This document shows positions 1-35,631 of a stretch of DNA of 64,000 nt, piece after piece. This DNA comes from Nitrospirae bacterium MYbin3 (lineage in GTDB: Bacteria > Nitrospirota > Thermodesulfovibrionia > Thermodesulfovibrionales > Dissulfurispiraceae). Position 1 is the first letter of the stretch, and each line of letters starts with the position of its first letter. Below the pieces are notes generated by a model. It was not told where the DNA came from, made no database searches, and was given only the letters and a program-made list of their open reading frames with translations. The DNA lies in contig PEAD01000001.1 in assembly GCA_002753335.1 (NCBI GenBank), positions 1 to 64,000 of the forward strand, written 5' to 3'. A program made the position numbers and the translations under genes.

Positions 1-32
1 GCATCATTCCGGGTGCCATTGTTCCCAGCGCC

Positions 33-1450
33 TGGAGCAGCAATGGGACCTGGCGGACCGGCACCAGCACCTGGAGCAGCAATGGGACCAATGGCAGGCC
101 CAGGTGGACCTATGCCCGGCCCAGCTGGTATGGCACCCGGAACGATGACTCCTGGTATGTCCCCTATGGGTGGACCGGCGGGAATGGCACCAGGAACGAT
201 GACTCCCGGAATGGCTCCGACTGGCCCAATGGGAAGTCCAACCGGACCTATGGGAGCGCCGATAATGGGTGGCGCACCCTCAGGCCCGATGATGCCCGGA
301 GCAATGGGCCCGATGGCCGGACCAGCACCTGGAATGATGGGGCCTGACCCGATGATGGCAGGTGCGCCCGGCGGAATGTATCCGGCAGGAGGACCTGCTG
401 GTATGGCACCTGGAGCAATGGGAACAGCGCCTATGCCTGGAGGTATGATGGGACCGATGGGTGGACCAACACCTGGAATGATGGGGCCTGACCCGATGAT
501 GGCAGGAGCGCCCGGGATGATGGCACCCGGAATGCCCGGAACACCGGGAATGGCGCCGGGGACAATGACACCCGGGATGATGCCAGGAGCAATGGGCCCG
601 ATGGCCGGACCGGGAAGCATGGACTTTGGCATGCCTGCAGGAATGGCGCCGGGAACAATGGCACCCGGAATGATGCCTGGAACAATGGGAACAACAACGA
701 TGCCGGGAATGATGCCCGGTATGACAGGTGGAATGTATCCGGCAGGAGGAATGGCACCGGGTATGACGACTCCCGGAATGATGGGGCCTGATCCTATGAT
801 GGCAGGAGCCCCCGGAATGATGCCCGGAATGCCTGCCCCTATGGCCCCTGGAATGGCGCCAATGGGAACAACAACGATGCCGGGAATGATGCCCGGTATG
901 ATGGGGCCGATGGCCGGACCGGGAAGCATGGATTTTGGCATGCCTGCAGGAATGGCGCCTGGAACAATGGCCCCCGGAATGATGCCCGGGATGACAGGTG
1001 GAATGTATCCGGCAGGAGGAATGGCACCGGGTATGACAACACCCGGAATGATGGGGCCTGACCCTATGATGGCTGGCGGAATGTATCCGGCAGGAACAAC
1101 GATGCCGGGAATGATGCCCGGAATGACAGGTGGGATGTACACAACCGCTCCTACTGGCACAATGATGCCGGGAACATATACAGATCCAATGATGGCGGGA
1201 ATGACAGGTGGGATGTACACAACCGCCCCTACAGGCACAATGATGCCGGGTACTACAATGCCTGGCACATACACTATGCCCGGAACTTACACGATGCCTG
1301 GCATGACAACTATGCCTGGTATGTACACAGACCCAATGATGACGACCATGCCCGGAATGTATCCGGCGGGGACGATGATGCCCGGAACCTATGTAATGCC
1401 GGGGACGACAATGCCTGGAACGTACACATACATGCCTGGAACACCGTATG
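33..1450 (+). repeat. Intragenic low-complexity repeats (MAPG/MMPG/GPDPMMAG/GGMYPAG)
   Basis: Recurrent blocks: MGPMAGPGSMDFGMPAGMAPGTMAPGMMPG at ~592-680 and ~901-990; GMTGGMYPAGGMAPGMTTPGMMGPDPMMAG twice; GMTGGMYTTAPTGTMMPGT twice. Confidence 0.9.
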
Positions 1451-3942
1451 TTCCTTATACCGATACTTATGGCGCAATAACCACAACAACTACAAACTTT
1501 TACGGCAGCATGGGAAATATTTTAGGTCTTTCCGGCTCGTATCCTAATAATGTTTTAGCAATTAGCGGTGGTTCACTTTCCGGCTCGGCAACAACAATGC
1601 CGGCAATCACAAATGAGTTGTCCGGCCCGGTAAGCTTCAGCATTTCTCCTTACAGCAACCCCGGTTCTAAAAGCATATTTGCCTCTGATATTTCTGGGAC
1701 TAACGACAGAGGCGGGGCCTTCGTCGGATTTACAGGAAGCACAACGCCTTCATCCCCGGGCAAGGGCGCATATGTTGCGTTTTATGCTGAAGGAGGTATG
1801 CTGGGCATCATAGAGGGTTCCTATACAGGATATCTTGATCCGTCATTAACCATGTTTAATGCGAGCGGCACGGGTAGAGTACATCTTATTGGCCCCGGCA
1901 TTACCTTTTCGCCTACGATAGCGGGGCTGCAAAGCGCTATGACCGCTAATCTTCAATCCAGAGTAAACCAAACAGATTATGGTTTTAAGATTGGAGCTGC
2001 AAACAACTTTGACGTAACACTGGGCGTTCTTGCCAACCAAAGCGGAATTACCTATACAGAATTTGAAAGCTCCTTAAGCACCTATGGCTCAAATGCCGGC
2101 ATAAGAATGCGGTTTGAGACAGGAACCTATTTTTATTTGAATGACTATCTGAGCAGAGGTGGATATATAAGCGGCACCTCTTATTTGGGTACAAGAACGC
2201 CGGTTAAATATTCCGTATCGTCTGCATCCATTAACAACGATCCATCCAACAACCTTTTATCCGCAGATTATGACGGAACATCTATAATTTTTGATTCGGC
2301 AAATAGCATCTATTCTTTAGGTCATGAGGGCGGCCATTTCAACGCTAGATACACTTATATGTATGGCGGCACCTATACCGCTGTTGATATAGGCGGGTTT
2401 CAGGGCAGTCCTATGACTTATGCGAGCAGTTTCAGCAATGTTCCTATAACCGGCAAGGGAGCTGCTTGGGGCTCTGATGGATCCTTATATGCTTTTATGG
2501 GCGGCACAACGAACTTTTATAACGGCAGCGGATCTATAACTATACTCGGAGGAGCTGACTGGAGTGCCGGAGTTGTGCCATCAAGGTTCGGTCAGATTTG
2601 GCAAACAGGCTTTTATAATGCAGCTATTAGCAACAGCGCAGCATTTGATGGTTACATGAGCGGCATTCTCCGTTATAATGTGCCGAACCAGTATGGCCCT
2701 AACCCGACAGGCCATAATATTGAAGGGCTTATCTATGCCCTTTACATATCACCTTCAGGTACAGCAGGAATAGCTTACGGTGATTTTGGCGTGCCCTACA
2801 GCGGCTATAAAGGCGAATTTTTTTCTGATATAAACATGTTTGCGGCTGACGGGTGGATAAACACTGTTCAAATGGAATATACAACCCCTGTATCAAGTTT
2901 GAACGCACTTAAAAGAACAACAACTTTTCAGTATCAATCTGTTAATGAGGCGGGTTCGTTTTTAGATAACAACTATTACCTTTCAGGCTATGCTTTTGCA
3001 TCATCGAGCCCGACGCTAAGTGTTGAGTGGATTAATGGCGGTTCAACAGGAATTTTGGGCAATATGGGCGTATGGAGAACCTATGATTACGGAACGTATG
3101 TAAATGGTGGGTTTAACAACGGATGGATTAGGGTCTTAACAGGTTGGGATGGTGCAGCTTCAGGTTATGTAGCGGGGGCTTTGATAGAAGGCGGCCCGAT
3201 GGGAAACAAAAACACTTTTTCGTATGATTATTCGTCAGCAAGCGGATATGTAAATGTTTATAGTTCCATGCCTGCGGACAAGCGGTTTGACGCCATGGTT
3301 TATGGCTACTGGGCAGATACCGGGGGAAGGGCTAATTCCGGCAATCCAATCACCGCAATAATGGCAGGAAAGCTGGTCGGAACTTTTGATGCTTCCAACT
3401 ACACAGCTGTTGCTGCTGGAGCTTTTATAGAGACCACGAAATACCTGCAGATGGCATGCGGGGGTGATGCTTCATGCCCCGGGTGGTATTATGGGGCCGG
3501 CAACAATTCTGACTACAAACTCAACCAGCTGAATGTGCCCTCTTTTGTTGTTGGAAAAACAACGCTGTCAGGTGTTGGTGGTGGAAATATTTCTTCTGTA
3601 ACAATGTCTGATGTGGTGTTTCTTGCGCCTCAAGGCGGGGCGGCCCCTAAAGTGTGGGCTACAGCTAATGTAAATGGAACTGTTACCGGGGACCCAACCA
3701 ACGCTTCCGTCAATTTAAGCGGCTCCGGTATTTCGAATGTCAGTTTTACAATGAAGCAATGGACAGGAGCCAGCGGCAATTGGCTTGCAACGGTTGGAGG
3801 GACAAATCAGGTTTCTCCGGGCGCTTTGCAAGGCTACACTCAACAGTCTGTCCCCTTGACGATGAAGGGCGCTGCTGCCGGCCGTATTAACGCAGGCGCC
3901 ACAGGATTCACCGGCACAGCGGCAGGCACCGTAAACAAATAG
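33..3942 (+). CDS. Large Met/Pro/Gly-repeat, beta-rich putative secreted or surface protein, 5'-truncated
   Basis: Frame is open from the window edge to TAG at 3940-3942. The first ~480 aa are MxPG low-complexity repeats. The remainder is Gly/Thr/Ser/Tyr-rich beta-strand sequence ending GAAAG...FTGTAAGTVNK. The GTG at 13 lies in the inverted terminal segment and is probably not the true start. Confidence 0.75.
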
Positions 3943-4044: not shown

Positions 4045-4560
4045 ATGAGAAAATTCTTTTATACATTTTTTTGCAGCACAGTAATATTTTTTTCGGCATT
4101 GGCGGTTCAGGCAGAGCCGTTAAAGATAGCGCTGTTCGACACGCAGAGGATACTTGCTGAATCAAAGGTGGTTAAAAAATACAGGCAGAAGCTGATGGAG
4201 ACGACTGACGCTAAACGCAAGATGTTTTCGGACAAGCAGGAGGCCATGAGGCAGACCGCCGAAAAGCTTAGGACAGACGGCGGGAAAATGACTTTTTTTG
4301 AGAAGAAAAACCTAGAAGAAAAACTTGCGTTGGAGGACAAGGAGCTTAGGCGCTTGCGTGAAGACCTTGATTATGAAATCCAGAAGATGGACAAAGACCT
4401 TACGCAGCAGGCGCTTTTGGACATAGAGAAAATCATTCGTGAAATTGTGCGCAAAGAGGACTTTACCATAATATTCGAGAGGGGCTCCGCAGGCATCGTG
4501 CATTTCAAAGAATCGGTTGACCTTACCCCAAGAATCATTAACCTTTACGACAAACAGTAA
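4045..4560 (+). CDS. skp: OmpH/Skp family periplasmic chaperone
   Basis: Signal peptide ending VQA-E, KIALFDTQRIL start, long coiled coil, and C-terminal VDLTPRII typical of OmpH. RBS ggagga. Confidence 0.85.
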   Translation: MRKFFYTFFCSTVIFFSALAVQAEPLKIALFDTQRILAESKVVKKYRQKLMETTDAKRKMFSDKQEAMRQTAEKLRTDGGKMTFFEKKNLEEKLALEDKELRRLREDLDYEIQKMDKDLTQQALLDIEKIIREIVRKEDFTIIFERGSAGIVHFKESVDLTPRIINLYDKQ

Positions 4561-4715: not shown

Positions 4716-7700
4716 ATGCCTGAACAGGACAAGCAAAAGGAGTCCCGCAGAGGCCTTATTCGGAAGGTTTTTCAGGGATTGCTTGTGGGCGCTGTTGTGG
4801 GGCTCTTGGCTGTCTTTGCCGGTTTTTTAGAAACAACCGAGCATCTAGAGCTTATGGCTCTTGATCTGCGGTTCAAGCTGAGGCCGCAGATAGAGATGCT
4901 GCCTGAAGTGGGCTACATAGAATTTGATGATTCATCGCTCGAACGCTTTGGCAAATGGCCGTGGTCGCGCTCCCGGCAGGTGGCGCTTGTAAACACCCTT
5001 GGTTTTTACGGTGCACGCGCAGCCGGATATGACGTTTTTTTTGTAGAAAAAGAAAATGTGGTTTTCCATCCCGCAGAAATTAAACAGCATCTTTTAGGCC
5101 AAACAGGCGATGCTGATTATCAAACCTTGATTAATGATTCATTCAGGGATTACGACTATGAGTTTGGAAAAGCGCTTCGCAAAGCCGGAAACATCTATCT
5201 TGCATATTTTTCTCATGACCCTAGAACCGCAGAAAAGACGCTAGCCGGGATACTAAAAGAGACAAAGGAAAATATAAAGGGTTATCCTGCAGAAAAAAAA
5301 GAGTCTATCGCTGAACTCGAAAAAACATTCTTAACCCCTTACAAAGATGCAGAGCAAAGCGCCTATAAGACTGTTGACATTGATGGCCCGTTGCCCGATT
5401 TTATAAGATCTGCAAAGGGCATAGGCTTTGCGCAGCCCGGATACAACAAGGACTCTATTGTCCGCAACTATATTTTTTACCGGTACTATAACGGCAAGCT
5501 GCTTTATCCGATTACTATGAGAATGCTGGCGGATATTATGGACTTTAAGCTTTCTGAGATCGAAGCTGTTCCGGGGCAGCATCTTATAATAAAAAATGCA
5601 AAAGATTACAAAACAGGACAAAGAATAAATCTCAAAATACCGATTGATGATCACTTCCAAACGCTGCTAAACTGGGCAGGCTCTTTTAATAAAGCCTTTC
5701 TCCGCATTCCTTTTGAATATATCAACTACCACTACTCATACAATTTAGCAAAAGAGATAGCGAGAAAATCGATGTCAGCACAGGCCGACATAAATGAGAA
5801 GACTCTTGTCCGCACCGCCACTCGCATTCGCAACAGGCTCGAAACAGAAGGCATTGCGATCGGCAGTGAAGCGGAAAGGGTTGGCAAAGAGGTTGCAGCA
5901 GCTCAATTGGCAAATATCGGGCTTGATAGAAACATGACAGAAAAACAGATACTTGCTATTCTCGAAAAACATATAGAAGCTAATCAGGCCCAACAAATTT
6001 TTGATTCGGTCTTTACAGGGTACAATGCTGCAAAGGCGACAAAAAACAATCCGCAGATCTCTGCTCCTGAGTTCTTTGCAACCGGAAATTGGCGCGGGGA
6101 CAGGCCGCAGAGAGAAGAGGCGTTTAAGAGTATTCAATTTTTTGCGACGGCAGGAAAGCTCGAAGATGTACGGCCCTTTTATTTTCCACCGCTCAGGCCT
6201 GTGAAGAAAAACGAGAAAGAGGTCTTGTTGTCGCCGCTCGATCTTTATGGAAAGATATTTATGATAGGGCTTACCGGCACGAACACCATAGATCTAAAAC
6301 CTATGCCATTTGATGAATCAGCGCCGATGGTCGCGTATCACGTCAATGCGTTGAACATGATGCTTACCAAGAATTTTCTTTCATTCCCTCCGCAATATTT
6401 CAAATATGCGGCAACACTTGGTTTAGCGCTTATAATAGGCATGCTTGGAAGTTTGTTCAGCATACCTGTATTTTCGGCCTTAACCGCTGCTGTGGCCTCA
6501 AGCTACCTTTTCGTGACCTATCAGATATGGGTGTCCAAGGGTGTCTGGCTCGAATGGGCTGTTCCCCTTGCAGCTATTTTGTTGGCTTTTCTTTCTAGCG
6601 CGGTCATACAGCTTATCAGGGAGTTCCGTGAAAAGAAAAAGGTCAGGGGCATCTTCTCTACAATGGTTTCACCGGCGGTGTTAAAGGTGATGGAAGAAAA
6701 TCCGGACAAGTTTTCGCTTACAGGCGAGCGCAAGCCGGCCACAATGCTGTTTTCGAAAATAGACGGCATCGGGGATGTGATAAAAACTATCGCACCGGAT
6801 GAGCTTACGCAGCTATTGAGCATATATCTCACGCCCAACAGTGAGATTATTATGGAGTACGACGGATATATAGACAAATATGAAGGCCACGTTATCATGG
6901 CCGATTTTGGAGTGCCTCTGGACGATCCGGATAATCCCTGGAAATGCGCCTTTTCAACTATTGAGCAGCGCCTCGATATAGAGGCGTTCAAATATTTTGT
7001 GAAGGTCAGATACGGTCTGAATGTTGGTGTTTCTATGGGCTTCAACCACGGCTATGTTTCTGCCGGCAACATGGGTTCGGAGCGAAAATTTCAATATACG
7101 GTTATGGGAGACCCAGTCAATGTTTCGGCCCGTTTTATGGCGGCCAACTACATATACAACTCACCTTACTCTATAACCGGCGAAGAGTCTGTTTCTGTCC
7201 TTGAAGATTTTGTGCATCTGCGTATTTTGGACAAGCTTCTTCTTAAAGGCAAAACCAGACCGACAGAGATAGCGGATATTTTAGGCTGGAAATCGGACGT
7301 CTATCTAAAGATGAGGGGCAAAAGCCCTGTTCCTGAGTTTTTGCGCACTGTATGGTCCAAATGTCCTCCAGAAAAGATCTTTGGGTATTATGCTTTGTGG
7401 GAAACGCGGCAAAAGCGCCTAAACAGCGGGCTTGCAAAAGAGATATCCGGATTTTTTGAGGGCGAACTCAGCACCGCCGAAAAAATGATGGCTGCAGAAT
7501 GGAAGCGTAATATTCTTTTGTGCATAAAGCGTATAGAAAGCATTGAGCTAAATGCTAAGGCTTTGCTGGGATATGCAGTTGAGCGAAAGTCTGTATCCGG
7601 CGGCTCCGAAATTCTGGGCCAATGGCATGAAAGCATTGCTGATATAACAAACAAGGCGGCAGATGCTTTGAGAAAAGAAACGGATCAAACAGCGAAGCTC

Positions 7701-8213
7701 GATGGCCTTATCCGTGATTGCGGGATACTGCAGGCTCAGATAGCGCTGCTTATGAACAGGCTTAACATCGATGCTGAAGAGGGTCAGGATGAAAGGATCT
7801 TAAAAGTATTCGGAATGATTAAAGAGTTTGTTTCCTCCACAGTATCTATTCAAAACAATGACGAGGCGAGCAAAAAAGTTGAAGCTGAACTCAATGGAAT
7901 CCGAAATAGTTATGCAGCCTCAGCCAGCAGCTTTTTCGATAAGATTAAAACAAGAAAAGAGGAGTACCACCATATTATGGCGGTCATAGGCGCTCCGGAT
8001 GAGGATACATTAAAGACAAGCGCTTTCTTTGACAATGGGCTAAGGCTTTATTGGGAGCGGCGGTGGGATGCTGCAATCGAGGAGTTTAAAAAGGCGGCAA
8101 CGCTAGGCGCTGATGGCGGTCCTGCCCGCTCTTTTATAGAAAGGATAGAGTCTTATAAAATTTCACCTCCCGGCGATAAATGGCAGGGAGAGTTTGTGCA
8201 GACCAAAAAATGA
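4716..8213 (+). CDS. CHASE2-domain class III adenylate/guanylate cyclase A (lacks metal-binding Asp; C2-like)
   Basis: N-terminal TM, CHASE2 motifs (FGKWPWSRS, YDVFF, DSIVR, LLNWAG), 3 TM, then cyclase core FSKIDG / IDKYEGH / GNMGSERKFQYTVMGDPVNVSAR, and a C-terminal TPR-like tail ending WQG. Confidence 0.9.
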   Translation: MPEQDKQKESRRGLIRKVFQGLLVGAVVGLLAVFAGFLETTEHLELMALDLRFKLRPQIEMLPEVGYIEFDDSSLERFGKWPWSRSRQVALVNTLGFYGARAAGYDVFFVEKENVVFHPAEIKQHLLGQTGDADYQTLINDSFRDYDYEFGKALRKAGNIYLAYFSHDPRTAEKTLAGILKETKENIKGYPAEKKESIAELEKTFLTPYKDAEQSAYKTVDIDGPLPDFIRSAKGIGFAQPGYNKDSIVRNYIFYRYYNGKLLYPITMRMLADIMDFKLSEIEAVPGQHLIIKNAKDYKTGQRINLKIPIDDHFQTLLNWAGSFNKAFLRIPFEYINYHYSYNLAKEIARKSMSAQADINEKTLVRTATRIRNRLETEGIAIGSEAERVGKEVAAAQLANIGLDRNMTEKQILAILEKHIEANQAQQIFDSVFTGYNAAKATKNNPQISAPEFFATGNWRGDRPQREEAFKSIQFFATAGKLEDVRPFYFPPLRPVKKNEKEVLLSPLDLYGKIFMIGLTGTNTIDLKPMPFDESAPMVAYHVNALNMMLTKNFLSFPPQYFKYAATLGLALIIGMLGSLFSIPVFSALTAAVASSYLFVTYQIWVSKGVWLEWAVPLAAILLAFLSSAVIQLIREFREKKKVRGIFSTMVSPAVLKVMEENPDKFSLTGERKPATMLFSKIDGIGDVIKTIAPDELTQLLSIYLTPNSEIIMEYDGYIDKYEGHVIMADFGVPLDDPDNPWKCAFSTIEQRLDIEAFKYFVKVRYGLNVGVSMGFNHGYVSAGNMGSERKFQYTVMGDPVNVSARFMAANYIYNSPYSITGEESVSVLEDFVHLRILDKLLLKGKTRPTEIADILGWKSDVYLKMRGKSPVPEFLRTVWSKCPPEKIFGYYALWETRQKRLNSGLAKEISGFFEGELSTAEKMMAAEWKRNILLCIKRIESIELNAKALLGYAVERKSVSGGSEILGQWHESIADITNKAADALRKETDQTAKLDGLIRDCGILQAQIALLMNRLNIDAEEGQDERILKVFGMIKEFVSSTVSIQNNDEASKKVEAELNGIRNSYAASASSFFDKIKTRKEEYHHIMAVIGAPDEDTLKTSAFFDNGLRLYWERRWDAAIEEFKKAATLGADGGPARSFIERIESYKISPPGDKWQGEFVQTKK

Positions 8214-11200
8214 TAAAAAATGCAGAGCACAAAATAAACATTTTTCTAAAAGCCCATTTAAAGACAGGCTTGATTATAGGATGCGCTTTGTTTATCGTGC
8301 TGTCGCTGATGATCTATTTGCAGGCCTTTGAGTCGTTGGAGTTTAACCTTTTCAATAAAGCTTTTTTGAAGAAGGCGGCGCCTGTTCAAAATCAAGAGAT
8401 TGTAACCCTTGATATTGACGATCCTTCTTTGGCTTATGTGGGCAGATGGCCATGGTCATGGAATATCCATGCGATGGTGCTGGACTTTCTCTCGATGCAT
8501 GGCGTTCGCAACACAGTTTTTATAGATATGGATTTTTCGAGGGAAGAACCGGAGCGTTTAAACAGCGAAGCTGCTGTACAACTTAAAAGATCTTTACAGG
8601 CCTCTGTAGGTAAAGGCAAGGCCGCAGCTTCATTAATGCCGGAAGCAGGGCTGAACTTTTATAAAAGTGTTGAAAAGAGCGGCAGCGCTATTTTTTCTTA
8701 TGCACTTAAACATCCGCTGCCTGATTCTTCTTTTGCAGAAATAAGAGAGGCTGCAAAACAGAAAGAAAAGTTGTTTCTTCCGGATAAAGTTGCTGCAATA
8801 GAATTTCTTAAAAAGAAGCTCGAAATAAAGGGCTCGCCACAAAAGCTTCTGTCAGCGATTGATATGGATCCGCCTGTGATCAGGATAATGCGGTCTGCCA
8901 AGAAAACCGGGTTTAACGCCATAGATCTTGACTCTGACGGATTTGTAAGAAGGTATTCTCTATTTGCAGAGTATCAAGGCGAGGTCTATCCTTCGGTTGG
9001 TCTTAATGTAGCGATGAATTTTTTGAACGCCGGCCGGATAGACTTTGGCGACAGATACGTAGATCTGGGAGGCAAGGCCAAGATCCCGGTGGATAGTGAA
9101 GGTAAAATGCTGATAAACTGGGCGGGTTCGTACGCCGACTCGTTTACCCATGTGCCGTTCAATTTGCTATCTTCTTTTATTGCGCTTCAGTCGGCTAAAG
9201 AGGAGGCTTCAAAGCATTCGCTTCAAGATATGCCGGATCCTATGGCGCTTCAGGAGATTATACTTGCTAGGCTTTCGGGGCTTCACATACTGCCTGACGA
9301 GCAGTGCAAATATATTTCGACCGTTGTTTTTGTATCGACACTTATTGAGTTTTATCTGAAGAACACACCAAATTCTGTCGAGGAAATATTAGATTCTTTA
9401 GGAGTTGATGCCAAGGACGAGCAGTGGTTGGCGCTTGGCAAGCAGATTCAGGTGAACAATTTTCTTGCAGATGTTTATAAAAAATCTAAAAAAATTCCTC
9501 CCTTCGCTGATTTGCTTAAAATGGCGCGTACAGGCAAGATCACGAAAAATGTGGAGAATCAGTTGAAAGATGCGTATGACCAGATGGTGTTTTATCTTGA
9601 AAACGGAAAGGTCGAGAAGGCAAGGCCGTTTTTCTTTGACGGCTCGAAAAAGCTTACGCTAGGCAAAAGAGTAATAAGCATAAGTCCTGCGTTTTTCAAA
9701 AACAAGACCGTATTTTACGGGCTGACAGCAACCGGGCTGACAGCGCAATAAGCAACGCCTTTCCTCGAACGGCATCCTATGCTTGATGTCGTGCCTAATG
9801 TGGTAAATACCATTGTTACCGGCAGTTTTATTTCGGAGGCCCCTGTGTGGACCAAATACGCAATCAGCGCCCTGTATCTTTTCGGGGTTCTTTTGCTTGC
9901 GCTCGTTCTGTCGCCCTTCCAAGGTCTTTTGTTTGCAGGCCTTGTGGCTGTTTTTCATGGTTCTCTTTCTTGGTCTTTATTTGTGAGCAGGGGATATATT
10001 CTGCCTGTAATCCCGCCGCTTGCGGCTGTTGTTATTTCTTATGGCGCCGCCTTGTTCTATCGCTACCTTCAGGAGCAGAAAGAAAAAAGAAAAGTAAGGG
10101 GCATGTTCTCAACCATGGTCTCTCCTGAAGTGTTGAGGATAATGGAAGAAAATCCGGCAGCCTTCAAGCTTGCCGGAGAGCAGCGCGAGGCCACGATGTT
10201 CTCATCCGACGTTTCTGGTTTTACCACCATATCTGAGGGGGTTACCGCCCGCGAACTGGCGAATATTCTTAATATTTACCTTACGCCGATGAGCAACATA
10301 ATAATGTCCTATAACGGATATATCGACAAATACGAAGGTGATGCGATTAAGGCGGAATTCGGAGTACCGCTTTATGACACGGACCATAGCTGGAAGGCCT
10401 GCTTCTCGGCCCTGTATCAGCAGGAAGAGCTTACGGTGATACAAAGAATGATCTTTCTGAAATACGGCGTGAGCATAACCGCAAGGATGGGGGTAAATAC
10501 AGGCATCGTGACCGCCGGCAATATGGGTTCGGAGAAGAGGATGCAATATACGGTTATGGGCGATGCGGTTACTATAGCCGAAGAACTCGAACCGGCGAAT
10601 AAGCTTTTTGATACATGGATCGCTATTGGACAGGCCACGCATGCACAAGCAGAGGGATATATAGAGACACGCTATTTAAACAACCTGATCATGGGCCACG
10701 CCCACCACTCCCTCCCTGTATATGAACTGACCGGGTGGAACAAAGAAAAATATTTGGAGTATTGGCTCGGTAAACCGGTGCCTGAACTGTATCTGGAGGC
10801 GTTCAAGAAGATGATCCCCGAAAAGGTGATCGCCTATGATGATTTTTTTGCATCCAAGCAGCTTCCTGATTCGAAGATGCTTGGTGACATGAAAACTCTG
10901 CTTTCGGGCCTACGGCCTAAGGTGGTTGAGTATATGAATGCAAATAATATCTCTAGCGTTCTTTTTGTGAGGCAGGGGCTTGAGGGGTTGGCCGCAGGCA
11001 TAAGAAAGCATGAAGGATTGTATTCCGGTGTTGCGCTGCCGGCACTGTACGCAACTGATATCAGTTTGTTGAAAGAAAAAATTTCTGCTGCAGGCGAGGA
11101 CTGGAGCCGTGTTCTTCTGGGGTGGAGAGTGCAGCTGAGGGAATGTGCTGGGCTGCATTTTATCCTGAAAGAGAAAATAGCAAAAGATGAGGCGGACTCT

Positions 11201-11689
11201 TATTACAGCATTATAGATATGCTGGAGAAGAGCATGGAATGTATAAATAAGCGGATAATATTTGCCAAGCCCGAAGATGAAATCGCAACAAAAATGGCGA
11301 GTCATCTGAAAGAGCTTATTATCGACAAGGATTCCACGTTGCTTTCGTATAAAACCGCCGAGCTTGCCGAAACATGTCTGCGGTTCGAAAAAGAGATACA
11401 TGACAGGCTTGCGGTCTTTGCCGAAGAGCTGAGAACGCGTGCTGATGAGTACCACATGTTTTTGGCTGACTTCTGCATAGTTTCTGACAGGCAGAGAGAA
11501 GCTGCGGCCATATACGCGCAGGCGCACAAACATTATCTAAAAAAGGAATGGAGCGAAGCAAAGGAATTATTCAAAAAGGTTGGTTCTGTTGTACCGGATG
11601 ATGGGCCTTCTAAGAAAATGCTCGAAAAAATAGAGCAGCTTGAAAAGACCATGCTGCCTCAGGATTGGGACGGAGCATGGGAGGAATAA
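8210..11689 (+). pseudogene. CHASE2-domain class III cyclase B (lacks Asn/Arg; C1-like), interrupted by in-frame TAA at 9749-9751 (nonsense mutation or sequence error)
   Basis: ORFs 8180..9751 and 9779..11689 share a frame and align continuously with cyclase A across the stop. ATG 8210 overlaps the cyclase A stop (ATGA). Core motifs FSSDVSGFT / IDKYEGDA / YTVMGDAVTIAEE. About 1159 codons if read through. Confidence 0.8.
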
Positions 11690-11702: not shown

Positions 11703-13493
11703 TTATGTGTCTTCTGCCAGAGTGTTTTCTACTACCTGGTTCACAGTAATAACGCCTTTTAGAGCTTTATCTATCGCTTCCTGTCTTAGGGTCATCATTC
11801 CGCTTTTTATGGCAGCAGCCCGCAAAGCTTCGGTGCTTGAGCCTTTAATAAGCAGGGACCTGAATTCTTTTGATACCAGCAATACTTCATATATGCCGGT
11901 ACGGCCTCTTTCGCCTGAGCCGTCACAGGCATCGCAACCTTTGCCGCGATATAGGGTTGTTCCTTCCTTGATATCTCCTTTTGTTAGCTCTTCTTCGTCT
12001 TTTGTTGACACGTAGGATTCCTTGCAATGGGAGCATATTCTTCTGGCAAGTCGCTGGGCGCATACGAGTACAACAGAGTCCGCAATAAGGTACGATTCTA
12101 TGCCCATCTCAACTAATCTGGTGATAGTGCCGACAGCATCATTTGTATGCAGGGTAGAGAAAACCATGTGGCCGGTAAGCGATGCCTCAACAGCAGATTT
12201 CGCTGTTTCGAGGTCTCTAATTTCACCGATCAGAATAATGTCAGGGTCATGCCTCATAAAGGCCTTAAGCGCTTTTGCAAAGGTGTATCCGGTGGCCGGG
12301 TTAACGCTGCTCTGTATGATGTTGCCGCCGAGGCTTGTTTCTACCGGGTCTTCGGCCGTACAGATTTTAAGATCGGGTGTATCCAGCGTTTTAAGCGCAG
12401 CAAACAAGCCTGTGGACTTACCGCTTCCTGTAGGTCCCACATGCAAAAGAATGCCGTACGGTACCTGTATCGCCTCTTTGTAAAGCTTCATGCAGTGGTC
12501 ATTAAATCCGAGCATGTCCAGGGTAAGAACATTCCCAGACTTGTCCAGAAGTCTCATGACCACATCTTCGCCGAACGGTGTGGGTACGGTAGAAACGCGC
12601 AGGTCTATTTCGAAAGAGGGATTGTATTTTGTAAAATCGATTCTTCCATCCTGAGGCACACGCTTCTCATCTATTCTCAGGTCGGCCATTATCTTAAATC
12701 TTGTGATTAAGGCGTCCTGCGCATATTTAGGCACTCTCATAACCTCTTCAAGGTCGCCGTCTATACGGTACCTGACGCGAAGGTTGAACTGGGTGGGCTC
12801 CAGATGTATGTCGCTTGTCCTCTTTGCAACGGCCTCTTCAACGATTCTGCTTGCGAGCATCACGACCGGCCCGCTGTTTTCGGTTGCCTGATCCTGAGCA
12901 ACCTCAGCCATTTCAACATCAGTACGGTAACTCTCGGCAAGGTTGTCCATCAGGGTTCCAAGTCCAAGGTTGTCCTTGTCCTTGTCTTTTGCCTTGTCTT
13001 TTAAACCGTACAGCTTGTCAACGGCAGCTATTAATTTTGCCTGAGTGGTAACCGCGATTTTTACGGTCTTTACGTTGTATCTTGCGTCTTTGGAGAAACG
13101 TGTTATTTCATCAAGCGCCATCAAGTCTCGCGGCTCTACCATGGCTACGGTGAGAACCGGATCCGCATATTTAATCGGGAGAACCCTCAAATGTTTTGCA
13201 TAAGCAGGTTTAACGATTTTAAGGAGTTCTGACTGCACAGGGATAGTGGTAACATCCACAAACTCATAGCCGAGAGATTCTGCAACAATGGCGGCCACTT
13301 TATCACCCGGAATTCCGGTCTCTATTAAAAGTTGATCGAGATTTTTCCTTTCCTTGGCAACTCTCGGCAGCAGCTCTTGCAGCTGTTCATTAGTTACGAG
13401 CCCTTTTTCTATAGCAAGCTGTTCAAGGCTTTTTCTGACAACCTTTTTTACTTCGGGGCCTTTTGCAGCGTCAGCCGGTTTTTTTTCTTCCAT
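11703..13493 (-). CDS. GspE/PilB family type II secretion or type IV pilus assembly ATPase
   Basis: SDIHLEP, RYRIDG, PQDGRI, Walker A GPTGSGKST, AEDPVE, DPDIILIGEIRD, TGHMVFSTLHTND, and Cys4 zinc motif (CSHC...CDAC). Confidence 0.92.
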   Translation of the reverse strand: MEEKKPADAAKGPEVKKVVRKSLEQLAIEKGLVTNEQLQELLPRVAKERKNLDQLLIETGIPGDKVAAIVAESLGYEFVDVTTIPVQSELLKIVKPAYAKHLRVLPIKYADPVLTVAMVEPRDLMALDEITRFSKDARYNVKTVKIAVTTQAKLIAAVDKLYGLKDKAKDKDKDNLGLGTLMDNLAESYRTDVEMAEVAQDQATENSGPVVMLASRIVEEAVAKRTSDIHLEPTQFNLRVRYRIDGDLEEVMRVPKYAQDALITRFKIMADLRIDEKRVPQDGRIDFTKYNPSFEIDLRVSTVPTPFGEDVVMRLLDKSGNVLTLDMLGFNDHCMKLYKEAIQVPYGILLHVGPTGSGKSTGLFAALKTLDTPDLKICTAEDPVETSLGGNIIQSSVNPATGYTFAKALKAFMRHDPDIILIGEIRDLETAKSAVEASLTGHMVFSTLHTNDAVGTITRLVEMGIESYLIADSVVLVCAQRLARRICSHCKESYVSTKDEEELTKGDIKEGTTLYRGKGCDACDGSGERGRTGIYEVLLVSKEFRSLLIKGSSTEALRAAAIKSGMMTLRQEAIDKALKGVITVNQVVENTLAEDT

Positions 13494-13502
13494 AAATGTT
13501 TT

Positions 13503-14366
13503 CTATATCCTCGTAATTATGAGAATCAGCTGCCGTACCTTGTTTTTATCATCAACGTACGGGATGACCTTTACTTCAAGCACAGACAGCTGGCAGATCA
13601 TTTTATAGCCTTTTGCCAATACATCATTTAGTATCTCTTCAAGTTCGGTGCCGACAAAATTAGGGAATATTTCTAAAAAGTTGGCGCCAATCATAGAATC
13701 TACGGTGTATCTCATGCCGCTCATCATCTCCATAAACCTGCTTGCGGACATTATTGTTTTTTTCGTGTTCAGGATGCAGATCCCTTCCTCAATGTCGTCC
13801 ATAATGTAGGTTCTGAGCAGGCGCTCCTCATCCACCTTCTGATAAAGCAGCGCATTGTTCACAGCTATTCCTATCAAAATCGCAAGCTCCTGCATCATCT
13901 CAACATCCTTCTGGGTAAAGCCTCCGGGCTTGTTCAGCGCCTGCAAGACCCCGATAGTAGGCCCATTGGTTCTGAAAGGAATCGGGATTACAAGGACGCT
14001 TTGTGTTCTGTAACCGCTTTTCATGTCCCAGCTTTTGTCGAAGGCGAGTTCCGGGTCAGCGGCCTTAAGTTCTGCGTCATCGTAAGCATCTTTGATGTTG
14101 AGATAGTTGGCTGTTTCTGCCGAATAACCGGCAAGGCTTGATTTTTTTATAGGAACCCGTATCTCTACAAGATTTTCGGCCTGCAGCACTTTCGAATACA
14201 TCTCATAGTTTTCTCTATCAAGGATATACAGGGTGCAGCGTTCGGCCTTCAGTATATTACGAACCTGTTCAACAACCGAGGTCAGTATCTCGTTGATGTC
14301 TAAAGACGTAAGTATCGTCTCTAAAATATTGAAGAAGTTGTCTATGCTTTGTGTGAGTTCTTTCAA
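13503..14366 (-). CDS. GAF domain protein with C-terminal PAS-like domain and no catalytic output
   Basis: TTG start with RBS aggaga. GAF motifs AERCTLYILD, FDKSWDMKSGYRTQSVLVIPI and LNKPGGFTQKD. PAS-like segment IMDDIEEGICILN. Confidence 0.85.
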   Translation of the reverse strand: MKELTQSIDNFFNILETILTSLDINEILTSVVEQVRNILKAERCTLYILDRENYEMYSKVLQAENLVEIRVPIKKSSLAGYSAETANYLNIKDAYDDAELKAADPELAFDKSWDMKSGYRTQSVLVIPIPFRTNGPTIGVLQALNKPGGFTQKDVEMMQELAILIGIAVNNALLYQKVDEERLLRTYIMDDIEEGICILNTKKTIMSASRFMEMMSGMRYTVDSMIGANFLEIFPNFVGTELEEILNDVLAKGYKMICQLSVLEVKVIPYVDDKNKVRQLILIITRI

Positions 14367-14518
14367 GCCGTCTCCTGACTAATAAAAATAAAAACTATTA
14401 TATCACAGAACAAAAGAACTTTTTTACAGCATACTGGACAGACAAAAGAATGAGGGGTTAAACTAATCCCGGTTCCGGAGAGCAAGTTTATTACATATTT
14501 GTGCGGGGTGAAAAAACT

Positions 14519-20338: not shown

Positions 20339-20608
20339 TCAGTTATTTTAGCCCAGACAACTTTGCAATTCATAGGCCCTCGGGGCGTTACCTTTTTACT
20401 CATCGCGCTACACTATGTAACGGAGGCGCCAGCATAATAGTAAGTGGCAAATATAGCCATACTACTCCTAAAAATTCTCTTAAACAATTATTTAGGTTTT
20501 AAATTCAATGACATTTCCGGTCTTAGTTCTGGGCGCCGAATAATTTTTAAGCTTTTATATGGCCTGTTGAGGCGCGGGCATGCTATTTGCAAAATCTTTA
20601 CACTTAAT

Positions 20609-22519
20609 ATGTTACTTGAAGACACCACAAACTTTTTAAAGGACATTCCGCCCTTTCAGTTTCTTGAGCCTGCGGCGGTCAAGGCTCTTGCAGGGAAGAT
20701 GTCACTTGAGTTTTACCCGCAGAACACCATAATCCTGAAGCAGGACGGCCCGCCGAGCGAGACCCTTTTGGTGATCAAAAAAGGCGGGGTCAAGGTATTT
20801 ATCAGGTCGGGCGATGGCGAGGAAGTATTAACAGACTATCGCGGTGAAGGCGACCTTATCGGATACCTATCTCTGTTCAGCGGGGACAAATCAAGGGCTA
20901 ATGTCGCAACCGTTGAAGACACTATGTGCTATGTGATCAATAAAGAGACGATACAGGCTCTTTACGACTCAGAGCCGATTATAAGGGAATTCTTCCATAA
21001 ATCATTCGTCAACAAATATGTGGACAAGACTTTCAAGGAGATGCACAACAAAACGCTGATGATAGGCGGCGGCACCGATACCCTGATGTTTACCACCACC
21101 GTCGGGGAGTTGGCCACAAAAGGCGTTGCAACCGTTTCCAAGGATGTTTCTATACAAGAGGCAGCAGCAATAATGTCAACAAACAAGATAAGCAGCATCG
21201 TACTCATAGATGAAAACTCGGTGCCTGCAGGCATAGTCACCGACAGGGACCTCCAGGACAAGGTTGTTTCAAAGGGCCGCGACACAAAAGAAAAAGTAAG
21301 CAACATAATGAGCCCGTCATTGATAAAGGCAGAGGCAAGGGAATACTGCTTCGAGGCTCTGCTTAAAATGCTTCGCTATAACATCCACCACCTGCTTGTG
21401 GTTGACGACGGCAAACTCAAAGGCATAATAACCAACCACGACCTTATGATGCTTCAGGGCAAATCCCCGCTCTCTTTTGCAAAGGACATAGAAAGCCAGT
21501 TCACGATAGAGGGACTTATACCGGTTTCGCTTAAGGTGAATACCGTTGTGAACCTGCTTTTGAAAGAGGGTGTGAAGGCAAGCAACATATCGAAAATAAT
21601 CTCTGAGCTTAATGACCGGGTTGTAAGAAAAGTCATTGAAATGGCAGAAAAGAAGTTTGGCCAACCGCCGCTTCCTTACTGCTGGATAGTGTTCGGAAGC
21701 GAGGGCAGAAAAGAGCAGACCTTCAAGACGGATCAGGACAACGCGATAATCTTTGCGAACCCTGCATCGCCTGAAGAAAAGCAAAAGGCAAAAGAATATT
21801 TCCATACCTTTGCAGAGTTTGTGAGGGATGGACTTATAAAATGCGGCTTCCCTCCATGCCCGGCAGACAACATGGCCAGCAATCCTGAATGGTGCCAGCC
21901 CTTGAGCGTATGGAAGGGATATTTCGGCGACTGGATTTCGAGGCCTAATCCGGAAGCTGTTTTGAAATCGCTAATATTTTTTGATTTCAGGCCGATCCAT
22001 GGTGATTTCAGCCTTGCTGAAGATTTGAGAATGTATCTTATAAAAATATTGAAAGACCAGAATGTTTTTATGGCCAAGATGGCTTCTGTCATAACCAAAA
22101 ACAGGCCGCCGCTCGGCTTCTTCAAGACCTTTATAGTCGAAAAGAGCGGGGAGCATAAAGATGAAGTAAATCTTAAGATAAACGGTACCGGGCCTCTTGT
22201 GGATGTTGTCAGGATTATGGCTCTTGAGGCAGGAATTTCAGAAACCTCAACGCTCGAAAGGCTTGAGAAGCTGAAAGAGGTGCATCCAACAGCGAGGGAT
22301 CTGGGCGAGGAACTGGCCAATGGTTTTGAGTTTATTACCCTTCTCAGGATTCATCATCAGGTCGAGAGCATCGAAAAGTCAGGGTCGCCGGACAACTTTT
22401 TGAATCCTAACAAGCTTAGCAATCTCGAAAAGAAGACTCTCAAAGAATCTTTTCAGATTATCTCAAAGGCTCAGGATGCTATTGCGGCGCAGTATGGTCC
22501 GGGGATGGTTGGCGGATAA
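20609..22519 (+). CDS. cNMP-binding / CBS-pair / DUF294 nucleotidyltransferase-like protein
   Basis: N-terminal cNMP domain, CBS pair (GIVTDRDL, GIITNHDL), NTase motif FGSEGRKEQTFKTDQDN, IFFDFR. Probable start ATG 20609. Confidence 0.9.
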   Translation: MLLEDTTNFLKDIPPFQFLEPAAVKALAGKMSLEFYPQNTIILKQDGPPSETLLVIKKGGVKVFIRSGDGEEVLTDYRGEGDLIGYLSLFSGDKSRANVATVEDTMCYVINKETIQALYDSEPIIREFFHKSFVNKYVDKTFKEMHNKTLMIGGGTDTLMFTTTVGELATKGVATVSKDVSIQEAAAIMSTNKISSIVLIDENSVPAGIVTDRDLQDKVVSKGRDTKEKVSNIMSPSLIKAEAREYCFEALLKMLRYNIHHLLVVDDGKLKGIITNHDLMMLQGKSPLSFAKDIESQFTIEGLIPVSLKVNTVVNLLLKEGVKASNISKIISELNDRVVRKVIEMAEKKFGQPPLPYCWIVFGSEGRKEQTFKTDQDNAIIFANPASPEEKQKAKEYFHTFAEFVRDGLIKCGFPPCPADNMASNPEWCQPLSVWKGYFGDWISRPNPEAVLKSLIFFDFRPIHGDFSLAEDLRMYLIKILKDQNVFMAKMASVITKNRPPLGFFKTFIVEKSGEHKDEVNLKINGTGPLVDVVRIMALEAGISETSTLERLEKLKEVHPTARDLGEELANGFEFITLLRIHHQVESIEKSGSPDNFLNPNKLSNLEKKTLKESFQIISKAQDAIAAQYGPGMVGG

Positions 22520-34737: not shown

Positions 34738-35631
34738 ATGAAAGATCAACGAAAAATTATCGTCGAAAATGCTTTAAGGATGTCGAAGGAGACAGGGAGC
34801 GAAAAAATATTACTGTTTCTTGATACCATTCAGTCTTGCCGCTGGTGGATAACAGCAGATGTTAAAGAAAAGAAGCGGATTATAGTTGTCTTGCCAAAAA
34901 AATTAGAACTTAAAAATCTAACTTTAAAAAAAACTTGCTCTGAAATTATCCGGAGCTGGTCAGGCAATCAGACCCGATTTTCAAGGATTAAATATGCTTT
35001 TCTTCACGGTGTTATTCACGAAATGATTAATGAGAATAGCAAGGTGGTCTGCGTTCTCGGCCCCTCGGGAAAGAGCCATCTTGATACTATAACGATCCAC
35101 GACTTGTCTCTTTCCTGGAGCGAGGAATTCCCGTTTGACGTAAAAGGGCTTATCAGGAACAAGGCTTTTTATACAATAATGGCGGTAATTGATATTGCTC
35201 TGGATATAGGGGCTTTAGGCAGGGAGGGAAAATCCATAGGCACGATCTTTGTTATAGGGGACTCGCAAAAAGTCCTGAAATTGTCGCATCAGGCGGTTTT
35301 TAATCCGTTTAAGGGATATCCTCTAAGAGATAGAAAGATAACCAGGACAGAGGTGGTTGAAAGCTTGAAAGAGTTTGCAAAACTTGATGGGGCAATTGTC
35401 ATATCAGATGACGGTACTGTTGAAGCAGCCGGCAGACACCTTGATGCAGGAGGATCAACAGCAAAGACTCTGAGAGGCTTGGGGGCAAGGCACAGATCAG
35501 CTGCGGGGATCTCCAGAAAAACAATGTCTGTATCTATTGTTGTCTCTGAAAGCACCGGCAAAGTAACCATTTTTGACAAAGGCGCTATAGCTTTAACGCT
35601 AGAGCCCTTGATAAGCCGGCGTTTAGTATAA
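34738..35631 (+). CDS. Diadenylate cyclase (DisA_N domain, DacZ/CdaZ-like)
   Basis: GREGKSIGTIFV, catalytic DGA (KLDGAIV) and RHR (GARHRSA), VVSESTG. Soluble N-terminal domain with no TM. Confidence 0.88.
   Translation: MKDQRKIIVENALRMSKETGSEKILLFLDTIQSCRWWITADVKEKKRIIVVLPKKLELKNLTLKKTCSEIIRSWSGNQTRFSRIKYAFLHGVIHEMINENSKVVCVLGPSGKSHLDTITIHDLSLSWSEEFPFDVKGLIRNKAFYTIMAVIDIALDIGALGREGKSIGTIFVIGDSQKVLKLSHQAVFNPFKGYPLRDRKITRTEVVESLKEFAKLDGAIVISDDGTVEAAGRHLDAGGSTAKTLRGLGARHRSAAGISRKTMSVSIVVSESTGKVTIFDKGAIALTLEPLISRRLV

Follow-up and report, generated by a model that had tools for sequence, protein, structure and literature searches.

The window analyzed here, a 64,000-nucleotide stretch of Nitrospirae bacterium MYbin3 (contig PEAD01000001.1, positions 1 to 64,000 of the forward strand), carries two adjacent forward-strand genes, A (4716 to 8213) and B (8210 to 11689), each coding for a membrane protein with a CHASE2 sensor domain and a nucleotide cyclase domain of class III. 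We propose, with a probability of roughly 85%, that the two products constitute an obligate heterodimeric adenylate cyclase with one working site, predicted to make cyclic AMP (cAMP) only as an A:B pair. A and B likely work only as a mixed pair because each has lost the half of the active site that the other keeps. A first-pass annotation of this DNA had suggested such a heterodimer, and the suggestion is supported by the conservation of the reciprocal split among homologues and by two further catalytic positions, an arginine in strand beta4 and a lysine in the beta7-beta8 region, that are also divided between the chains.

Catalytic residues of A and B

Gene A is an open reading frame of 1,165 amino acids (aa), and its AlphaFold2 model (predicted local distance difference test score [pLDDT], 89.7), Pfam matches, and hydropathy agree on a layout of an N-terminal membrane helix, a CHASE2 domain with a helical insert, three membrane helices, a class III cyclase core that corresponds to the C2-like half, and an all-helical C-terminal extension. 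Gene B, with 1,159 codons, has the same layout and the C1-like half, and its ATG at 8210 overlaps the gene A stop codon (ATGA), as previously recognized in the first-pass annotation. The AlphaFold2 model of an intact copy of B (protein P0219) has a pLDDT of 88.7, with low confidence in the beta2-beta3 region. Both proteins match CHASE2 and Guanylate_cyc (PF00211) in Pfam, and by hydropathy and in the models each has a hydrophobic segment at the N terminus and about three more. The CHASE2 region of A (aa 45 to 555; 4848 to 6380; PF05226, E = 4e-31) includes a helical insert of ∼170 aa in the model secondary structure and, judged by the flanking hydrophobic segments, is predicted to be periplasmic. 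The cyclase core of A (aa 673 to 858; 6732 to 7289; PF00211) has a class III fold, with a Foldseek template modeling score of 0.85 on the target CyaB of Pseudomonas aeruginosa (PDB 3r5g). The first-pass description of the two genes as collinear paralogues is borne out by their matching domains and by 319 identities over 1,206 alignment columns.

All-helical inserts are present in the A model both inside CHASE2 and after the cyclase core. The latter is a helical extension of ∼230 aa (A aa 860 to 1090; B aa 845 to 1085) between the core and a tetratricopeptide repeat (TPR)-like tail; it is common to A and B, absent from single-gene relatives, and partly deleted in some orthologues. ESM Atlas searches with the C-terminal extension and the CHASE2 insert matched only short TPR-like or CHASE2 clusters.

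Conservation was assessed in 216 homologous proteins, found by using the C-terminal half of A and that of an intact B as queries (the best 120 of 161 and the best 120 of 160 matches), which were grouped by search rank and higher score, not by signature, into clusters of 70 A-type, 79 B-type, and 67 other proteins; the counts that follow refer to these listed matches. The catalytic positions named here align gaplessly to CyaB in both proteins, and the residues assigned to them in the first-pass annotation are all confirmed. In A, the metal-binding aspartates are replaced by Lys681 (6756 to 6758), which is variable across A-type proteins and never Asp, and by His725 (6888 to 6890), which is His in 59 of 70 and never Asp, such that no A-type protein has Asp at either position. 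The adenine-specifying Lys721 (6876 to 6878) and the residues Thr795, Asn802 (7119), and Arg806 (7131), all within 7098 to 7133, are each present in 70 of 70. The B-type proteins have the reciprocal pattern: Asp667 (10208 to 10210), which lies within a near-invariant phosphate-binding loop and helix, Lys707, and Asp711 (10340 to 10342) are found in all 79, together in B itself with Thr781, and none of the 79 has Asn788 or Arg792. Thr788 (10571), Glu791, and Glu792 (10583) of B, spanning 10571 to 10585, stand in place of Asn, Ala, and Arg, with Glu791 in 79 of 79 and Glu792 in 78, the remaining protein having Lys. The single-gene relatives carry the complete D-K-D-T-N-R set without exception (67 of 67). 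The best 150 matches listed by a profile search against 1.84 billion representatives contributed another 98 proteins, of which 87 are fully canonical, four have one deviation, five are A-like, one is a fragment, and one is without a core match.

Two positions that the first-pass annotation did not use are split in the same way. Arg759 in strand beta4 of B (10484 to 10486), predicted to position phosphate, occurs in all 79 B-type proteins and in none of the 70 A-type proteins, which mostly have Ser, and Lys844 of the beta7-beta8 KGK motif of A (7245 to 7247), likewise implicated in phosphate positioning, is present in 70 of 70 A-type proteins, the motif being lost in B. The beta4 arginine is assigned in PMC2576301 to the subunit with the two aspartates and the beta7-beta8 lysine to the subunit with the Asn and Arg, and all eight positions in the pair are divided as in mammalian C1/C2. 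Column identities follow this division, at 0.97 in B and 0.40 in A for the phosphate-binding loop, and at 0.80 in A and 0.29 in B for the beta7-beta8 region. Each chain appears to have kept its share of one common site, with the rest relaxed. The first-pass annotation had raised the possibility that Asp683 of A replaces the lost aspartate; Asp683 is an unlikely substitute because it is not conserved (Asp in only 14 of 70 A-type proteins), and we reject this rescue. Ratios of nonsynonymous to synonymous substitution (dN/dS) against the orthologues in locus L021 are 0.086 for A and 0.072 for B overall, and 0.015 and 0.019 in the respective cores, values that are rough because dS is >1; both genes are under purifying selection.

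The substrate-specifying pair of A is Lys/Thr (Lys721/Thr795; 70 of 70 A-type proteins), the pair that defines subclass IIIb, and the dimer arm of A (aa 779 to 795) aligns gaplessly to 3r5g and equals that of CyaB at 15 residues, another class IIIb feature. None of the 70 A-type and 79 B-type proteins has all six catalytic residues in one chain, and the self-sufficiency of a class IIIb chain is thus lacking from both groups. A and B appear to descend from class IIIb-type CHASE2 cyclases while falling outside their one-chain definition.

The second, dead site is not drifting. B-type proteins have new invariant residues at Lys714 (10349 to 10351), Glu791, and Ser665, and A-type proteins have His725 in 59 of 70. 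Lys714 is present in 79 of 79 B-type proteins, with Met at this position in 70 of 70 A-type and 67 of 67 single-gene proteins; it lies at the modelled interface and, on this basis, is predicted to point into the dead site. A and B were matched into 30 sets by equal length of the longest contig, used as a proxy; seven sets are without His725 in A and have His or Lys at position 788 of B; the 23 with His725 have Thr or Ala there. This apparent exchange fits a cross-subunit contact between A725 and B788, with the seven sets counting as one event because all belong to one clade. In genome G277, position 725 of A is Asn and positions 788 and 792 of B are Glu and Lys, and these changes and the His swap fit a charge network across the interface. 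The dead site is probably a structural plug or a regulatory pocket, lined by His725 of A and by Lys714, Glu791, and Glu792 of B.

Origin, linkage, and the stop codon in gene B

In a tree of 94 cores, the A-type and B-type proteins form clades with Shimodaira-Hasegawa-like approximate likelihood ratio support of 100 and 99, respectively, and the two are sisters with support of 96; a second tree of 70 selected cores gives 99, 99, and 93. The sister clades sit among single-gene CHASE2 cyclases that are intact, a placement that fits the likely origin of the pair: an ordinary cyclase of the homodimeric kind was duplicated once in tandem, and the two copies then underwent complementary loss. The second tree also contains a separate A-like clade (P0262, P0294, and P0295; support of 100) of CHASE2 cyclases that appear to have lost both metal-binding aspartates independently, and one of the three also carries His at the second Asp position.

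The adjacent reciprocal pairs that the first-pass annotation recommended looking for are present in other genomes. Of 54 species-genome loci, 16 have a B-type gene, with an A-type gene directly upstream in all 16, and in one further locus (L030) A lies at a contig end. The pair is also present in two of four metagenome loci, the other two being short fragments, and in eight further genomes, giving 27 loci with adjacent A-then-B genes, the window included. The start of B is −4 to +10 nucleotides (nt) from the A stop in 22 of the 27. Within a 401-genome sample of the phylum, 19 genomes match at an E value of 1e-45 or better, nine with both paralogues and ten with one weaker, uninspected match. 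The record labels, taken unchecked, include Nitrospirae, Lindowbacteria, Hydrogenedentota, Dependentiae, Planctomycetes, and Syntrophales. Among 791 long candidates there was no fusion of A and B, although this is weak evidence. In locus L055, what looks like a frameshift in A is a gap in the scaffold together with duplicated sequence. In locus L076, a third cyclase directly follows the pair (13318 to 14441, forward strand); it has canonical residues in two overlapping frames and appears frameshifted.

The B-type gene of the window is interrupted. The first-pass annotation had taken B as an open frame of ∼1,159 aa and overlooked an in-frame TAA at codon 514 (9749 to 9751), which divides B in this window into pieces of 513 and 636 aa. 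P0219 (1,159 aa), encoded on a separate 77,680-nt contig, is identical to the window B at the other 1,158 positions and has His at 514; the exact gene A sequence is also recorded on two contigs. The codon is CAC in the closest orthologue (L021), and a residue is present at this column in 79 of 79 B-type proteins. These observations point to a stop specific to this assembly, and since an otherwise identical intact B is recorded on another contig it probably reflects either an error in the assembly or a mutation at the strain level. An alternative genetic code is ruled out, as TAA also terminates B and the intact copy has His.

We consider it possible, if unlikely, that the TAA is real in this one genome, with B either a recent pseudogene or expressed as two pieces by a restart at the ATG at 9779, which would give a B without its sensor that retains the membrane helices and cyclase core. 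The stop stands in the assembly, its origin from a His codon requires two base changes, and the in-frame ATG lies 27 nt downstream and opens the 636-aa frame; against this, the intact protein is recorded on a different contig, no ribosome-binding-like sequence was seen by eye ahead of 9779, which follows the stop, and dN/dS is low both before and after it. A real TAA would leave the conclusion for the family unaffected.

The proposed A:B pair and competing explanations

Structure prediction is consistent with pairing of the two chains. In a complex model that combined two copies of the B core with a single A core, ATP, and Mg, A scored 0.70 in three runs, compared with 0.01 for the best control; at least 80% of contacts agree among the runs, and partner pLDDT is 81 to 82. 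This mark is reached by 116 of 157 solved complexes and by 2 of 215 mismatched pairs, a calibration that is rough for a model built with its own alignments and ligands. The confident contacts involve a single B copy and form the usual head-to-tail interface, with B residues 671 to 676 and 707 to 710 beside A residues 795 to 802 and 845.

From the structures of class III cyclases, the working site of the heterodimer would be built from Asp667, Asp711, the phosphate-binding loop, and Arg759 of B, and from Lys721, Thr795, Asn802, Arg806, and Lys844 of A, with the A share selecting ATP. The second, pseudo-symmetric site would be unable to bind metal. The overlapping or abutting reading frames would favor co-expression of A and B, and a periplasmic signal would be received by the paired CHASE2 domains and relayed by way of the membrane helices and the helical linker. 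The two sensors are both conserved and diverged, and the pair may act as the two-receptor AND gate raised in the first-pass annotation; one composite sensor is as plausible.

Several points weigh against this proposal. The B gene of the window carries a stop, two bases away from a His codon, and in G277 A and B are on separate contigs. Both trees are quick searches without bootstrap, the first with near-duplicates of >80% identity dropped, and sister support falls to 93 in the second. The His swap in the dead site is confined to one clade and is a single event. The complex score may come from likeness to solved complexes, because cyclase dimers have been solved many times, and it covers the combination of two B cores with one A core. 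Four intact cyclases in the genome could in principle partner either half, and some characterized bacterial cyclases are active with non-canonical residues. Activity, expression, and binding of the A:B pair are predictions here. As to the unlinked genes of G277 (A, L081:5244-8741; B, L082:7073-10426), they have long branches, the dead-site residues are changed, and all working-site residues are kept. Their separation by an insertion element is unsupported, since the common neighbor is an AAA/TIR protein and not a transposase.

Other explanations fit less well. That A and B are catalytically dead receptors, alone or together, which bind nucleotide or act as scaffolds, would accord with the absence of essential residues from each chain alone, with the unusual helical C-terminal extension that both have and single-gene relatives lack, and with the new invariant residues of the predicted second site. 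However, every catalytic position is kept between A and B, invariant and on the correct subunit, and a dead pair would have no need of Asn802, Arg806, and both aspartates; we regard this explanation as very improbable. It is equally hard to credit that B is catalytically active as a non-canonical homodimer, with A serving as a distinct regulator or as a decoy. B does retain both aspartates, Lys707, usually Thr781, and a near-invariant metal/phosphate loop, and one-subunit homodimers are described as forming readily in soluble guanylyl cyclase (PMC6005667), but B-type proteins have Glu at the transition-state Arg position (78 of 79), no Asn, and no KGK motif, as well as Ser and Lys where all A-type and single-gene proteins have Phe and Met. 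The residues missing in B are exactly those kept by A, and with two B cores on offer the model nonetheless placed A against one B.

The least probable of the alternatives, and a quite remote one, is that each of the two chains finds its main partners among the other, intact cyclases of the cell and modulates them as a half-active subunit. The genome does code for four intact class III cyclases, and the genes are unlinked in G277; the tight A-B linkage in 27 loci and the presence of both genes in every genome with enough flanking DNA argue against it, as does the mirrored divergence of A and B (Mantel r = 0.905 over the 30 proxy pairs), a correlation that common ancestry alone also gives. These three alternatives (a dead pair, a B homodimer, and other partners) explain the exact complementarity less well than does the A:B heterodimer.

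Genomic surroundings and known cyclases

Upstream of the pair, a forward-strand gene cut by the contig start (1 to 3942) is orthologous to the FecR-domain gene L089:3866-7933, whose product carries PF04773 N-terminally and is 53% identical over 812 aa, and is a possible signal input to the pair. Its first part (1 to 1500, forward strand) has a long Gly/Pro/Met/Thr-rich low-complexity stretch, also present in the L089 orthologue, that is likely a flexible periplasmic linker. Between this gene and A lies an OmpH/Skp-like gene (4045 to 4560, forward strand; PF03938), found in the same position in locus L086, with an uncertain link to the cyclase pair. A TPR protein with a weak barrel match is clustered upstream with the FecR-type gene in loci L075, L086, and L089 only; the window contig ends before that position. 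Adjoining the pair on the other side (11703 to 14366, reverse strand) are genes for a GspE/PilB-type ATPase with an MshEN domain and a GAF protein. Genes of this kind adjoin the pair in six of the 27 loci and have two arrangements: in four they lie downstream and are convergent with it, and in L053 and L087 they lie upstream and run in the same direction. They may link the pair to pili.

The genome as a whole has ten cyclic nucleoside monophosphate (cNMP)-binding matches, four intact cyclases, and one two-domain cyclase, and cAMP therefore has both receivers and other sources. Within the window, a cNMP-binding/CBS/DUF294 nucleotidyltransferase gene (20444 to 22519, forward strand), near genes for a sodium:solute symporter and an acetyl-CoA synthetase, is a possible local cAMP receiver. 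A diadenylate cyclase (DAC) with a DacZ_P sensor domain is coded at 34738 to 35631 (forward strand). Outside the window, a 1,318-codon frame (G000:C1:126668-130621, forward strand) codes for one chain in which two stretches partially match the cyclase core, the first having both aspartates and the second Asn and Arg, and is probably a single-chain pseudo-heterodimer of the soluble adenylyl cyclase (sAC) type.

The closest functional parallels to the pair are eukaryotic. The mammalian adenylyl cyclases AC1 to AC9 are described as having one active and one non-functional site, with halves that complement each other (PMC2576301 and PMC8815786). B resembles C1, with two aspartates and the beta4 Arg, and A resembles C2, with Lys, Asn, Arg, and the beta7-beta8 Lys. 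In contrast to A and B, which are two genes whose products each have a CHASE2 sensor and one plus three membrane helices, the mammalian enzymes are one chain with two six-helix membrane domains. The specificity residue is Thr in the pair and Asp in mammals, the dead site of the pair has conserved charged residues, and A and B arose separately, from bacterial CHASE2 cyclases. The alpha and beta subunits of soluble guanylyl cyclase (GC-1), like A and B, come from two paralogous genes, and both are described as contributing to the heterodimeric core (PMC6005667). The pair differs in being membrane bound with only CHASE2 and cyclase domains (no H-NOX or PAS), and its Lys/Thr signature predicts ATP and not GTP, with no Glu/Cys guanine specificity. 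A and B appear, by sequence, to work like mammalian C1/C2 and soluble guanylyl cyclase while belonging to neither family. In sAC, two complementary catalytic domains are both required, according to PMC11006738. There, both halves are in one soluble chain, whereas A and B are separate genes. Bacterial single-chain tandem sAC-like forms exist. The rhodopsin-guanylyl cyclases of chytrids (NeoR, RGC1, and RGC2) are described as obligate two-gene heterodimers with two different sensors (PMC8815786). They are eukaryotic, light sensing, and GTP specific, and RGC1 and RGC2 keep all catalytic residues; their heterodimer rule therefore does not come from residue loss.

Among bacterial enzymes, A and B share their fold and arm length with the class IIIb and CHASE2 homodimers, and CyaB (3r5g) and Synechocystis Cya2 (2w01) are the closest solved sequences. 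CyaB has all six residues in one chain and neither A nor B does, and A and B carry the large inserts within CHASE2 and downstream of the cyclase domain; Cya2 is reported to form a two-site homodimer (PMC6005667). The order of CHASE2, membrane, and cyclase domains is that of Sinorhizobium meliloti CyaD1, CyaD2, and CyaK (PMC6005667 and PMC13001267), for which the signal is reported to arrive via the outer-membrane barrel NsrA (PMC13001267 and PMC7529298); the TPR/weak-barrel gene upstream in three related loci, a minority, is reminiscent of this. PMC8815786 assigns split-site class III heterodimers mainly to higher eukaryotes, and bacterial cyclases are described as homodimers or single-chain sAC in PMC6005667, PMC9433096, and PMC11006738. 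A bacterial two-gene split cyclase was not found in the literature searched, which missed most subscription reviews of class III enzymes. A broader and rather doubtful reading, taken as a whole, is that the C1/C2 division has evolved more than once in bacteria as two-gene receptor cyclases, that the dead site here now serves as a regulatory pocket, conserved and equivalent in bacteria to the forskolin or bicarbonate site, and that a single enzyme combines two inputs through its two diverged CHASE2 domains.

Annotated one sequence at a time, A and B would be labelled dead or taken for two separate enzymes. A source of cAMP that depends on two subunits could also serve as a split reporter. For the family, a conserved two-gene split in bacteria, together with intact single-gene relatives that survive alongside it, would expose in testable form the step from a homodimer to an obligate heterodimer.

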